Assembly: GCA_964016885.1 (NCBI GenBank)
Contig: OZ024756.1
Span: forward strand, 29,016,001 to 29,080,000
From: Eledone cirrhosa
Taxonomy: Eukaryota
Direction: 5' to 3'
DNA: 64,000 nt
Shown here: positions 4,757-46,783 of the stretch, piece by piece
Position numbering within the stretch: the stretch's first letter is position 1
Layout of the letters: the number at the start of each line of letters is the position of its first letter
The notes under the pieces: generated by a model
The model's database searches: none
The model's input: only the letters and a program-made list of their open reading frames with translations
Told to the model about the DNA's origin: nothing
Made by a program: the position numbers and the translations under genes

Positions 4757-5110
4757 AATGATATTAAATAAATGGAAACTATATTTATAAAACCATATTA
4801 ATTTTATTATATATATTTCAAGGAAAACCAAGACAACATGGATAGTGAATTTCCAACCGATAAGGTATGATTTTCATGGGTATATCTCTATTTATAAAAC
4901 AACTTTGTATTTTATCTGATGAAAGTGTACCAATGTTGTCTTGGTTGCCCTTGAAATATATATATAATAAAATAAATATGGTTTTATAAATATAGTTTCC
5001 ATTTATTTAATATCATTGAATATTTACTCCAGTAACTTGTTGAGTGCTCTAAATCAGTTATAAACATTTATATTTGTCGGACTTCCAACAAACTAAATAC
5101 CACTTCTACT
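4757..5110 (+). mobile_element. Hammerhead-bearing fold-back element, family A
   Basis: Inverted arms 4757-4835/4930-5017 plus tail with ttgagtgct; bounded by (TA)n on both sides. Confidence 0.8.
4908..4974 (+). ncRNA. Minimal type-I hammerhead ribozyme
   Basis: TATTTTAT-CTGATGA-AAG..ACCAA tgttgtc TTGGT..CTT-GAAA-TATATATA-TA-ATAAAATA. Confidence 0.85.
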
Positions 5111-5167
5111 TATATATATATATATATATATATATATATATATATATATATATATATATATATATAT

Positions 5168-5478
5168 AAGCAAAGAGATATTTAATTTGTTGGTAATTCA
5201 ACAAATATATATATTTATAACTGATTCGAAGCACTCGACAAGTTTTCTGGATTATAATATCAATGATATTAATAAATGGAAACTATATTTATAAAACCAT
5301 ATTTATTCTATTATATATATTTCAAGGGTACCAAAACTTTGGTCAATATGTGAATATTTATAAAACAAACTTTGTATTTTATCTGATGAGAGCGTACCAA
5401 AGTTTTTGTACCCTTGAAATATATATAATAGAATAAATATGGTTTTATAAATATAGTTTCCATTTATTAATATCATTG
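5168..5478 (-). mobile_element. Hammerhead-bearing fold-back element, family A
   Basis: Homologous to 4757-5110 in opposite orientation; within (TA)n. Confidence 0.8.
5375..5435 (+). ncRNA. Minimal type-I hammerhead ribozyme
   Basis: TATTTTAT-CTGATGA-GAGCGTAC..GTACCCTT-GAAA-TATATA-TA-ATAGAATA. Confidence 0.85.
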
Positions 5479-5530
5479 ATATATATATATATATATATAT
5501 ATATATATATATATATATATATATATATAT

Positions 5531-5868
5531 AATATATTAACAAATGGAAACTATATTTATAAAAACCATATTTATTTCATTATACATATTTCAAGGACAC
5601 CAAAGCAAATTATGGTGCGCTTTCATCAGATAAAATATAATATAGATCACTTTTATAAACAAATATTGACATACCCTTAAAGAATGCGACCATGTCGGTT
5701 GGAAGCTCGCTATTCTTGAAATATGTATAATGAAATAAATATGGTTTTATAAATATAGTTTCCATTTGTTAATATATTGTATTTTTATTCCAAAAATTTG
5801 TTGAGTGCTTTATATCAGTTATAAAAATATTTGCTTGTTGTATCCCAACAAATTAAATATAACTTCTA
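5531..5868 (+). mobile_element. Hammerhead-bearing fold-back element, family A
   Basis: Inverted arms (caaatggaaactatatttataaaa / ttttataaatatagtttccatttg) plus ttgagtgct tail. Confidence 0.8.
5573..5637 (-). ncRNA. Minimal type-I hammerhead ribozyme
   Basis: TATTTTAT-CTGATGA-AAGCGCACCA..TGGTGTCCTT-GAAA-TATGTA-TA-ATGAAATA; stem II covaries relative to the 5375 copy. Confidence 0.85.
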
Positions 5869-5924
5869 CATATATATATATATGTGTGTGTATATGTATA
5901 TATATATTGATGATGATATATGTA

Positions 5925-6230
5925 CACCCCACCGCCACACCCTACCCCATGCTCCCTCTCCCGTTCCGTCCACTGTGTCGATGACACAACAGTCCACACT
6001 GTAAGGTGGCCGCACAGGAGACACGGTGGAAAGGCTCCCGTCCACACTGTAAATGTAGTTGGTGTTAGGAAGGGCATCCAGCTGTAAAAAAAACCTGCCA
6101 GAGACGCTTCCATGCGAGCGAGACATGGTCTCCCGGCCATTACCACATCAAATGGAACAAAACTGTCTAACCCATGCTAGCGTGGAAGATGGACGTTAGA
6201 TGATGATGATGATGATGATGATGATGATGA
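5925..6230 (+). mobile_element. SINE / RTE-associated retroposon with (GAT)n tail
   Basis: gttggtgttaggaagggcatccagc and 3' acccatgctagc..gacgttagatgatgatg; homologue at ~14905-15128, tail fragments at ~12665 and ~57038. Confidence 0.65.
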
Positions 6231-6515
6231 TATATATATATATATTGTAGAGAGTAGGGGCTCAATGGCTGAGCCCTTGAACTAGCTCTTGAAACAGCAA
6301 GAGCTCAGCCATAGGGTCCTGACTCTTTATAATATAACCATACTCTACTACCTCAAGTATAGAGTACTCTGTTGAGCAATGGTCTAACCAATTTCCAACT
6401 GATTCCATCCTGATTTACACACACACACACACACACACACACACACACACACACACACACACACACACATATATATATATATATATATATATATATATAT
6501 ATATATATATATATA

Positions 6516-6593
6516 CAGGCTGTCCCCCCAAAATGGATACATACTTCAACAGCATTCTAATAAATATGGGTATACATTTTTAGGCACACCCTG
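6516..6593. mobile_element. Tc1/mariner-type MITE (78 bp)
   Basis: TA-CAGGCTGTCCCCC..GGCACACCCTG-TA; related sequences at 47817-48140 and 49095-49180. Confidence 0.7.
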
Positions 6594-6644
6594 TATATAT
6601 ATATATATATATATATATATATATATATATATATATATATATAT

Positions 6645-6868
6645 GTGAAGGCGTGTGGCTGAGTGGTTAGAGAATTGGATTCGCAATCGTAAGGTTGTGA
6701 GTTCGATTCCTGGACCAGGCGATGCGTTATGTCCTTGAGCAAGACACTTTATTTCACGTTGCTCCTTCTACCTGGAGTTGCGACCGATAGATAGTATTAG
6801 CAACTGGAAAGACCGACGGAAACATTGTTTCCTCGGTCCGATTTGACGAAAGTCGATCGTTTAAGATG
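6645..6868 (+). mobile_element. tRNA-derived SINE (family 2)
   Basis: A box tggctgagtgg, B box gagttcgattcc, then gtccttgagcaagacactttatttcac; other copies ~10975-11128(-), 24390-24510, 35388-35500. Confidence 0.8.
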
Positions 6869-44699: not shown

Positions 44700-45180
44700 T
44701 CACCTAACTCTTGATAGTTCACTTTGACTGTTGCTTCTTTAGCCAGTGTTGTTGCCCATCTTCATCACCCTGGGCTTCTTGGTAATGATCCTCAATCTAA
44801 TCTTAGTGGTGTTGTTAGCTGCTGTAGATCTGCACAGGTTTTTTTCCTAGCAAAGTAATGTCGTCAGAAAAAGTCTTGCCCTCTCCACACAATTCCTTGG
44901 CTGGGTCCACCGTCAGTTCTTTTCAATATAAAGTTGCCAGCCAATAGAAATAGCGAGGGAGAGATGATTCGGCCTTGTCTGATAGCAGAAACAATGTTTA
45001 AGAGATCCGTTGTTCCAGAGTACGTTCTCACGTAGAGTAGTGAATTGGTGTTCATACAAGCTCTTAAAGACGTGACAGCGTGGTTCCCTGTACATACTGT
45101 GAAACACCTTCTGGAAATCGATGAAGTTGATCACCCATGGTTTCTTGTGTTCGATGCCCTGTTCAGTGATGTTTATGTTG
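44700..45180 (-). pseudogene. Decayed non-LTR (RTE-like) reverse transcriptase fragment
   Basis: Frameshifted motifs in order: FIDFQKVFHS (cf. FIDFxKAFDS), IRQGRIISPSLF (cf. GVRQGCxLSP), FSDDITLL (cf. FADD), RLRIITKKPRVM. Confidence 0.8.
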
Positions 45181-45813
45181 GTTACTGACATGTGGAAGTG
45201 ATTAAAGATACAATGATATTTTAGTGATTTATTTCTAAAGATATAACTAGATAAATGTTCAGCATATATGAAAACGAATGCCATGCAGAGTTAAATCTAT
45301 GAGTAACTTTGGAGAAATAATTATTTACAGAGACAAATGTAGGGAGGGAGGGGGGGGGGGGTCAATATTCGTAGATGGAAAAAGGAAAACAATGCTCAAT
45401 CAGGAACAGAGCAGAAATATATTATCTATATATGGTCATAAACTCGCCTGAAAAAAGGTCACTATTTTGACCTCTTGTTTTCTGGAGGTAAGGTCAAATT
45501 AGGGCCTTGAAACCTATGGTAGCGCCTTGTTCTGTGTATGAACGTAAATGAATAATATATATATATATATATATATAACCAAAAACCCTCCATCTCAATT
45601 CTACTTTCGAAAAGCACAAGAACTGCGAAGCCGGTAAAGGAACCAAATAAATATTTAAAAAAAGACTCCAGTTGCATTTTCGATTTCATTTTTTCACTCG
45701 TGTAGGACATCTCGTTTTTTTTTTTTCGTTTTGTAAAAAAACCTCATTTTCTAATATATATATATATATATATATATATATATATATGTATATATATATA
45801 TATTATTATTATT

Positions 45814-46118
45814 AAATGTAAGCTATCGCCGTATTTTGACTAAAGAAATTATTTAGCCTGATAGTGGGGTTAAGAACCCTCGGAGAAATGGAAAAAGATG
45901 AGTATTGACGTACATGTAAATGGTAGCACAGTGGCCCGGATAACCAAAGATGTGGGTTCGACTCCCATGTACGTCAATACTAATCTTTTTCCATTTCTCC
46001 GAGGGTTCTTAACTCCACTATCAGGCTAAATAATTTCTTTAATTTCTTTAGTCAAAATACGGCGATAGCTTACATTTCTAATAATTTCAAACCCACTCGC
46101 TGTTTCGAAAATATACTT
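45814..46118 (+). mobile_element. Fold-back element with tRNA-like core (45907-45976)
   Basis: ~100-bp inverted arms; loop aatggtagc..GTGGGTTCGACTCCCAT-GTACGTCA. Confidence 0.75.
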
Positions 46119-46231
46119 ATATATATATATATATATTTACTTATTACTATTTAATTAAATAGCTCTGTACAATACATAGAGCACTCTTCTTTCCTTTACC
46201 TTTTCTAGGGAAATACATCACACACATATAT

Positions 46232-46353
46232 AACAAAGAAGGTGTGGTAAGATACCAGGTGGACCATAACGCACCAGAGTACGCGATAAAGAGTCAGGAA
46301 CCCAACGGTTGAGCTCCAGTCGGAGATCAGCCGTCGGAGTCCTGACTCGTTTC
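46232..46353 (-). mobile_element. Family B element, internally deleted
   Basis: gtgtggtaagataccaggtggaccataacgcaccagagtac..gccgtcggagtcc. Confidence 0.7.
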
Positions 46354-46447
46354 ATATATATATATATATATATATATATATATATATATTATATATATAT
46401 ATATTAATTCAAAATGTTAACAAAATAGATATTCTTGTGATCAAGTA

Positions 46448-46514
46448 TATTTTATTATACATATTTCAGAGGTACTGAGTTAACTTCAACAGTACGTCCT
46501 CATCAGATAAAATA
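46448..46514 (-). ncRNA. Minimal type-I hammerhead ribozyme
   Basis: TATTTTAT-CTGATGA-GGACGTACTG..CAGTACCTCT-GAAA-TATGTA-TA-ATAAAATA. Confidence 0.85.
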
Positions 46515-46581
46515 AGATGATGCATGACATACCCTGACATAGTAGATGGTTAAGATTCGGTCATGGTAGTACCATGACTGA

Positions 46582-46646
46582 ATTTTATCTGATGAGTACG
46601 TACTGTTGAAGTTAACTCACTACCTCTGAAATATGTATAATAAAAT
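46582..46646 (+). ncRNA. Minimal type-I hammerhead ribozyme (stem II partly mutated)
   Basis: ATTTTAT-CTGATGA-GTACGTACTG..CACTACCTCT-GAAA-TATGTA-TA-ATAAAAT. Confidence 0.75.
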
Positions 46647-46783
46647 ATACTTGATCACACGAATGTCTATTTTTGTTAATATTTTGAATTAATATTAATA
46701 ACTCCGGAAAACCATTCTTTTGAGTGCTTCCAATCTATTGTATAACTCATTCTTTGATTTATTCATTGAACCTTGTTTAACCT

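Follow-up and report, generated by a model that had tools for sequence, protein, structure and literature searches.

Why does one short motif, TTGAGTRC, recur beside (TA)n runs and within fold-back inserts in a 64-kb stretch of the Eledone cirrhosa genome (contig OZ024756.1, positions 29,016,001 to 29,080,000; called the window below and numbered from its first letter)? A sequence-only reading of this stretch had proposed that the motif is shared by unrelated fold-back families and lies 40-70 nt before their 3' ends, as a hairpin recognised by a mobilising enzyme. In this study, we traced several of these families to autonomous Penelope-like elements carrying motifs of the Hydra clade. We propose that these elements carry a bulged hairpin twice in their 5' leader, the motif belonging to the first of the pair, that inserted copies end just 5' of either hairpin, and that the hairpins probably act on the RNA as landing pads which set the start of reverse transcription.

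Recurrence of the motif in the window

Counted over the whole window with both strands listed, the pattern TTGAGTRC gave 22 matches, compared with a mean of 4.36 in shuffled sequence (maximum 12; none of 100 shuffles reached 22). All twelve sites named in the sequence-only reading were recovered, the minus-strand one at 29747-29754, and further copies of this type were found at 6342, 6955 (minus), 8507, 21320 (minus), 22521 (minus), 23876 (minus), 46162, 50205 and 50325 (minus). The nearest downstream (TA)n run lies 42-63 nt away at ten of the twelve named sites, while site 7675 is followed by (TA)n at 89 nt and site 23085 by a CA run at 36 nt instead. Over all 22 matches, a TA run was found 25-100 nt downstream of 16 (random positions: mean 4.75, maximum 12 in 2000 draws), 40-70 nt downstream of 11 (null mean 2.1) and upstream of 6. 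Five matches have no TA run within 250 nt, namely 23085 by that measure and 32530, 32847, 37862 and 56397, the last four of which look like chance occurrences.

The motif is the 3' strand of a bulged hairpin of the form RCTC-(stem-loop)-TN-GAGY-RC, so that its earlier description as a conserved hairpin is borne out. The preceding ACTC that had been reported as usual was present at nine of the twelve named sites, was replaced by ATTC at 5801 and 29747, and had no counterpart at 20979. The hairpin would be a candidate for recognition by the reverse transcriptase (RT) or the endonuclease. An Rfam scan of the window returned no family at threshold, only sub-threshold microRNA-like matches on hairpins and TA runs (among the matches listed, 150 of 277), and no long genuine open reading frame (ORF) was found in the window.

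Autonomous parents of the fold-back families

Searching the same genome (3.0 Gb) with the end of the element at 9813-10014, which we call family A, yielded 30 loci. Most of these are short fold-backs, constant at their outer ends and variable in the centre. One locus (L002/L031, with L031 at G000:C9) runs on into an ORF of 723 aa with RT and GIY-YIG domains, and both hairpins precede this ORF. The protein displays YRDD at 348 and a GIY-YIG-like core at 592 within a C-terminal endonuclease, RWR at 37 (a variant of RWK, which is found in metagenome relatives), DKT at 117 in place of DKG, the CxCX5C linker CNCPDRSIC at 572, CNLC at 670 (CxxC) and CKH at 698 (CxH); the endonuclease has no CCHH and a single Cys within the GIY-YIG core. 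A structural model of the protein (predicted local distance difference test, pLDDT, of 88) had TERT as its top fold match (3du5, E 7e-9), and a Pfam-A search with the protein gave no match. We scored 147 near-identical copies of this ORF. The unit is 3.55 kb long, and its hairpin-1 region has 30,325 exact-pattern matches in the genome, which sets the copy number of this region at 30,325 at least. At one locus (L013), the 3' end of family A abuts a 487-aa RT frame on the opposite strand that resembles those of LINEs (long interspersed nuclear elements), and which we take to be RTE-like.

By their sequences, the traced fold-back families A, C, D and F are identified as 5'-truncated ends of autonomous endonuclease-containing (EN+) Penelope-like elements, all four of which carry the hairpins in the parent, as the sequence-only reading had anticipated of autonomous partners. 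Its view that the carrier families are unrelated did not hold for these four: they are truncated copies of related elements, whose proteins are 34-54% identical to that of family A over the aligned segments. The parents would belong to the Hydra clade, a placement made by the diagnostic motifs listed in PMC8557442. The Naiad clade was considered and rejected, the endonuclease being C-terminal rather than N-terminal and a hammerhead being present. Putative hammerhead ribozymes lie in the pseudo-long terminal repeat (pLTR), with CTGATGA..GAAA cores in families C, D and E and, by eye, the U3:A8 variant in family A, a core known from PMC4209133. Family A inserts sit in (TA)n, and pLTRs from partial tandems, an inverted 5'-truncated copy and a one-sided tail were all observed (20 long loci, including 14 resolved two-armed inserts). 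A fold-back DNA transposon or miniature inverted-repeat transposable element (MITE) was likewise rejected, since a variable centre, a one-sided tail and an RT-encoding parent stand against the symmetric terminal inverted repeats of an element of fixed length.

Two hairpins in the leader and two insertion ends

In the leader of the parents, the hammerhead is followed by site 1 and hairpin 1, then by site 2 and hairpin 2, and finally by the ATG. Among 73 distinct family A ends, 30 fall 5 nt before hairpin 1 and 31 fall 3 nt before hairpin 2, the latter partly selected by the query; 4 are read-throughs and 8 lie elsewhere. This register of two hairpins and two ends led to the prediction of a second hairpin just past the tail end in the other families. 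Directly after the tail end, the predicted hairpin 2 was found in 95 genome matches for family D and 43 for family C, compared with 0 in controls, and all 24 loci fetched for these two families run on into a related ORF. Family F, chosen by protein search alone, has a parent whose hairpin 1 is a variant form while its hairpin 2 is canonical, and 51 of its 52 non-read-through ends fall within -12 to +3 of a hairpin. The same interval holds 16/16 and 18/22 ends of family D (two overlapping references) and 12/12 of family C. In contigs assembled from reads of two public runs on one sample, loose (TA)n ends were observed at 5782 and 8697, 5-6 nt before hairpin 1. Inserted copies thus have their ends 0-8 nt to the 5' side of one or the other hairpin; the hairpin within the insert marks the start of the inverted arm, and the uncopied hairpin 2 marks the 3' end.

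The positional enrichment of the motif relative to element ends could be confirmed from the TA-run and end-register counts, with a change in what the position means. The distance of 40-70 nt before the 3' end stands, whereas what the motif hairpin itself aligns with, at a distance of about 5 nt, is the beginning of the inverted arm and not the 3' end. Since the 3' end aligns with a second, uncopied hairpin beyond the insert, the 40-70 nt represent the spacing between two hairpins. Hairpin 1 and hairpin 2 are 55-83 nt apart in 17 loci and 78-99 nt apart in the Eledone cirrhosa genome. With the hairpins in the leader and hairpin 2 only 15-50 nt before the ATG, they could in principle serve transcription or translation of the ORF, their proximity to the ends having another cause; we regard this as most improbable, because the ends follow both hairpins within a few nt in families with spacings anywhere between 55 and 99 nt.

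As a separate observation, a 5' truncation no more than about 30 nt from hairpin 2 was noted by eye in 9 of the 30 ORF copies of family F (L314, L315, L324, L326, L327, L334, L337, L339 and L341), as if RT stalls there too.

Fold-back inserts in the window

The inserts and hairpins located in the window are as follows.

9813-10017, plus strand: family A fold-back in (TA)n, with an inverted arm from site 1, a direct arm with the 3' half of the U3:A8 hammerhead, and an 80-nt tail to site 2.
9943-9968, plus strand: hairpin 1 of this family A insert, composed of ACTC, a 4-bp inner stem, a TT bulge and GAGT-AC; site 1 lies 5 nt upstream.
15175-15404, plus strand: family A fold-back, hairpin 1 at 15333-15358.
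8582-8774, plus strand: fold-back of a family A subfamily, hairpin 1 at 8703-8728.
23830-24022, minus strand: family A fold-back, hairpin 1 at 23876-23901; the arms differ at two subfamily-diagnostic positions (by eye).
50279-50478, minus strand: fold-back of the A-like family B; its hairpin lies at 50325-50350, with the inverted arm from 6 nt upstream of it.
6246-6420, plus strand: family B-like fold-back, hairpin at 6342-6367, inverted arm from 5 nt upstream of the hairpin.
46405-46784, plus strand: family C fold-back, hammerhead core at 46589-46631, decayed hairpin 1 at 46701-46727, inverted arm from 5 nt upstream of hairpin 1.
37283-37720, plus strand: family C fold-back with an approximate 3' boundary, hammerhead core at 37506-37549, decayed hairpin 1 at 37617-37646.
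4750-5110, plus strand: family D fold-back, hammerhead core at 4916-4956, hairpin 1 at 5026-5047.
5150-5480, minus strand: family D fold-back, decayed hairpin 1 at 5231-5253.
5532-5869, plus strand: family D fold-back, hairpin 1 (ATTC variant) at 5787-5808.
10327-10630, minus strand: family D fold-back, decayed hairpin 1 with a weak model match at 10389-10422 (E 4.4).
7571-7771, plus strand: family E fold-back, hairpin at 7661-7682; the family has a hammerhead core.
23009-23130, plus strand: family E fragment with an approximate 3' boundary, hairpin at 23075-23092.
29705-29876, minus strand: family E fold-back, hairpin (ATTC variant) at 29747-29767.
20865-21044, plus strand: family E-like fold-back, in which TTGAGTAC at 20979-20986 lacks an intact 5' strand.
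21765-21990, minus strand: family F fold-back, beyond the twelve named sites, with a variant hairpin 1 (inner part of 35 nt, GAGC-CC) at about 21810-21857.
24182-24209, plus strand: hairpin with a 5-bp inner stem, family untraced.
37156-37191, plus strand: hairpin with a long inner stem, untraced family G.
6955-6983, minus strand: hairpin with a 7-bp inner stem, family untraced.
46162-46184, plus strand: hairpin of the GCTC/GAGC form, the top covariance-model match in the window (E 3.4e-6).

The family F insert at 21765-21990 ends 2-3 nt short of hairpins 1 and 2 of its autonomous parent. Additional observations in the window include a fold-back at 3280-3620 with a hairpin-like motif in both arms (model matches at 3321-3356, minus, and 3539-3574, plus), possibly an insert with both ends at site 2, and a further tailed fold-back at 7165-7532 (minus) with a deviant GCTC...GAGC hairpin not followed by RC (by eye). 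Minisatellite arrays at 34313-34841 and 40340-41902 yield repetitive open frames, and a frame at 51103-51495 resembles, by eye, a retroviral-type aspartic protease fragment of an LTR (long terminal repeat) retrotransposon.

Conservation and structure of the hairpin

Relatives of the parent protein at about 40% identity are encoded at 77 metagenome loci, of which 42 match the protein start and 41 have at least 100 nt of 5' flank. At least one hairpin was found in 29 of these 41 flanks and both in 19, in comparison to 7/368 windows within ORFs, 1/41 on the reverse strand and, for shuffled flanks, 11/4100 with at least one hairpin and 0/4100 with two. Several of the 12 flanks without a hairpin are permuted loci, whose true leader carries both. 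Of 11 genomic 3' ends, 10 fall 0-8 nt before a hairpin. The hairpin descriptor had been broadened after the flanks were viewed, and a held-out test was therefore made: a covariance model from 43 hairpins detected tandem pairs in 10 of 49 other loci (one of which, L080, had been viewed earlier), followed by a clear Hydra-like ORF start no more than 26 nt on in 8 of the 10 and at 51 nt in L123, with L080 ambiguous.

The first inner pair is Watson-Crick in 47 of 49 hairpins (36 C-G, 11 T-A; shuffle mean 30.4), the second in 28 of 44 (12.5) and the third in 19 of 27 (7.0). Judged from these alignments, the first three inner pairs covary. The outer pair is G-C in the metagenomes and A-T in hairpin 1 of most window families.

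Combination of ends in the fold-backs and a model for their formation

In 94 copies picked for hairpin 1 alone, the inverted arm begins exactly at site 1 in 65 by a strict test and in several more by eye, and at site 2 in a single copy (L219). Pairing of the two ends in family A gave 107 inserts with one end at site 1 and the other at site 2, 3 with both at site 2 and none with both at site 1, and the other families showed none with like ends (12 mixed inserts in D, 4 in C, 9 in F). The four families together thus show 132 mixed fold-backs and 3 like-ended ones. Of the 20 long loci, 14 could be resolved and all 14 are mixed; three extend past the locus and in three no inverted arm was seen. 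Either arm may be the longer one, the site-1 arm being so in 6 of the 14. Genome-wide, site-1 ends (6,900) and read-throughs (7,460) are nearly equal in number.

We propose a model in which the element protein would nick both strands of (TA)n, while two copies of the RT, probably as a dimer, would occupy hairpins 1 and 2 on a single transcript. Pairing with the UA just 5' of its hairpin, each nicked strand would then prime complementary DNA (cDNA), and the two cDNAs would join head to head, leading to an inverted repeat with a one-sided tail. The cDNA started at site 2 would take in hairpin 1 and the spacer, which form the tail, the one started at site 1 would exclude both, and hairpin 2 would never be copied at its own end. 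On balance, and narrowly, we favour this fuller account, in which a doubled RNA landing pad seats two RTs on one transcript, primes both target strands at once and so explains inverted repeat and tail, a portable hairpin of about 25 nt being enough to program internal priming anywhere in an RNA. In the accessible parts of Frangieh et al. 2024 (PMC11167929), PAc, the Poseidon element of Anolis carolinensis, is described as starting reverse transcription internally at two sites that bound the tail, on an uncleaved RNA template, as cutting and extending both strands, as requiring RNA that reaches 3' of the start and as a predicted dimer; these results from another clade support the frame of a two-start, both-strand model.

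The main rival explanation is that the hairpins are read as DNA, the GIY-YIG endonuclease setting the ends by cutting on the immediate 5' side of each hairpin in a cDNA or in a tandem DNA intermediate; identical distances between ends and hairpins would then also be expected. The available text of PMC8557442 ascribes the tail to endonuclease resolution, and PMC11167929, in the parts accessible, cites the D. virilis tail as required for endonuclease recognition. We nevertheless consider this reading unlikely: the conserved TA at -6 relative to the hairpin (24 of 44 hairpins, compared with 2-7 at positions -9 to -16) suits priming by a (TA)n end, RT starts in vitro at both boundaries of the tail in the Anolis element according to the accessible part of PMC11167929, and G-T wobbles in the inner stem number 8 compared with 3 for the reverse-strand equivalent, a weak indication.

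The two arms share subfamily letters (52 of 55 at one column, 19.1 expected), as expected if one template was used and as would also follow if a single cDNA from site 2 snapped back and was copied until hairpin 1 halted it; self-priming of this general kind was proposed in PMC3846280. Many short junctions are near-perfect palindromes (median arm difference of 1 nt in 26 inserts) and arm lengths are coupled, again in line with snap-back. A site-1 arm longer than its would-be template, however, cannot arise in this way, and the six long inserts described above (in L308 about 5.5 kb compared with 183 nt) largely refute snap-back for long inserts; L031 and L311 moreover end at site 1 with no inverted partner seen. 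We therefore judge snap-back to be quite unlikely overall.

Alternatively, both hairpins could be RT start signals with the arms derived from two RNA molecules or two events. The cDNAs cover the same stretch, which on one RNA would need strand displacement, and a few inserts have arms of discordant haplotype, as this would allow; free choice of sites should, on the other hand, give many like-ended inserts, in conflict with the 132 to 3 ratio and the 14 of 14 mixed long inserts, so that we hold such an origin to be very unlikely.

Two observations concern arm length. In family A, the short arms reach no further than 54-66 nt upstream of site 1, where stem II/loop 2 of the hammerhead lies (61/94 direct and 43/60 inverted arms; in the window, 9813-9937), and unlike these, both arms exceed 180 nt in all 14 resolved long inserts. 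The short arms would be accounted for by a transcript start at that point or by a shared block. Arms had also been suspected to cluster with their ends at the cut site of the hammerhead, but this was dropped, as only 3 of 94 were left after gapped alignment.

Several points weigh against paired landing pads on one RNA. For families E, B and G, exact-pattern searches did not turn up a parent that carries hairpin 2, although E shows a hammerhead and the same insert anatomy. Beside the classified fold-backs stand 21 more pairs with an unclassified or read-through end, and inserts with both ends at site 1 are under-sampled in family A because most loci were selected for hairpin 1. Two loci (L250, L233) and the window insert at 23830-24022 have arms of different subfamily haplotypes that one RNA does not explain, and that may reflect two templates or later gene conversion. 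For the Anolis element, the part of PMC11167929 available reports a start site without homology to the target, in contrast to the TA match seen in the present elements. As to the hairpin itself, the broadening of its descriptor has to be kept in mind, and some of the metagenome loci are close relatives; three of its four outer pairs never vary and may thus be read as sequence rather than paired, and the second inner pair is T-T in 8 of 44. Predicted folds are weak (-2.5 to -14.5 kcal/mol, z 0.04 to -3.3), which would fit an element held by protein, yet is also a weakness, and hairpin 1 of family A differs from the minimum-energy fold of its 40-mer. Among six published Hydra consensi inspected by eye, hairpins are clear in Amil-2, Ajap-1 and Ajap-2, a variant is seen in Crog, and none is clear in Amil-1 and Obim.

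Comparison with known systems

As far as the available text of Craig et al. 2021 (PMC8557442) goes, Hydra elements share with the parents a single ORF of RT and C-terminal GIY-YIG with DKT, an RWK-like motif, the CxCX5C linker, CxxC and CxH, as well as a hammerhead in the pLTR, the (TA)n target, an inverted truncated copy and a one-sided tail. They differ in that no hairpin is described in that text, in tails of 30-40 nt compared with 55-99 nt here, and in units generally under 3 kb, compared with the longer and, by its hairpin-1 count, very abundant family A. For PAc, the accessible part of PMC11167929 places the starts inside the ORF in an AC-rich stem-loop and describes no duplicated signal, and the RNA letters of its Fig. 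S1B contain no GAGYRC. Among these letters there seems to be a short motif that is duplicated close to the two starts, a lead only, the letter order in the PDF being unreliable. Type I minimal hammerheads have a palindromic loop 3, as here, and the U3:A8 core variant of family A is described for Schistosoma; the hairpin is, in contrast, a separate element 3' of the ribozyme.

Other RTs offer partial parallels. Twin priming of LINE-1 lets both target strands prime on one RNA and leads to inversion, with the second priming at a variable internal site and without overlap of the arms, in contrast to the fixed starts at paired signals and the overlapping arms observed here. The telomerase template boundary element and hepadnavirus epsilon are RNA stem-loops that position the RT beside its template. 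By analogy, the RT start would be fixed by a small stem-loop adjoining the template, with the difference that the signal here is doubled and lies 3' of the copied region.

Penelope-like elements are the sister group of telomerase, and the elements considered here, their fold-back form and their tail are already known. Literature searches, with Repbase reports and most subscription papers outside their coverage, found no description of the doubled hairpin, of its register to both ends or of the mixed-end rule. We consider the doubled hairpin to be a new cis-element in a known kind of retroelement. The choice of internal start sites and the origin of inverted ends and tail are stated as open in the accessible parts of PMC8557442 and PMC11167929. 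A short, doubled and covarying hairpin at a set distance from both ends makes the question of the start site open to simple mutagenesis, for which family A supplies many intact, near-identical ORFs. Family E hairpin-and-tail units additionally occur in short tandem arrays with a period of 28-83 nt (L164, L166, L167, L172).

Tens of thousands of short fold-back repeats, which could otherwise be mistaken for MITEs, are furthermore recognised and bounded by means of the motif. If the proposed role is true, a portable hairpin of this size could program internal priming at a chosen position of an RNA.

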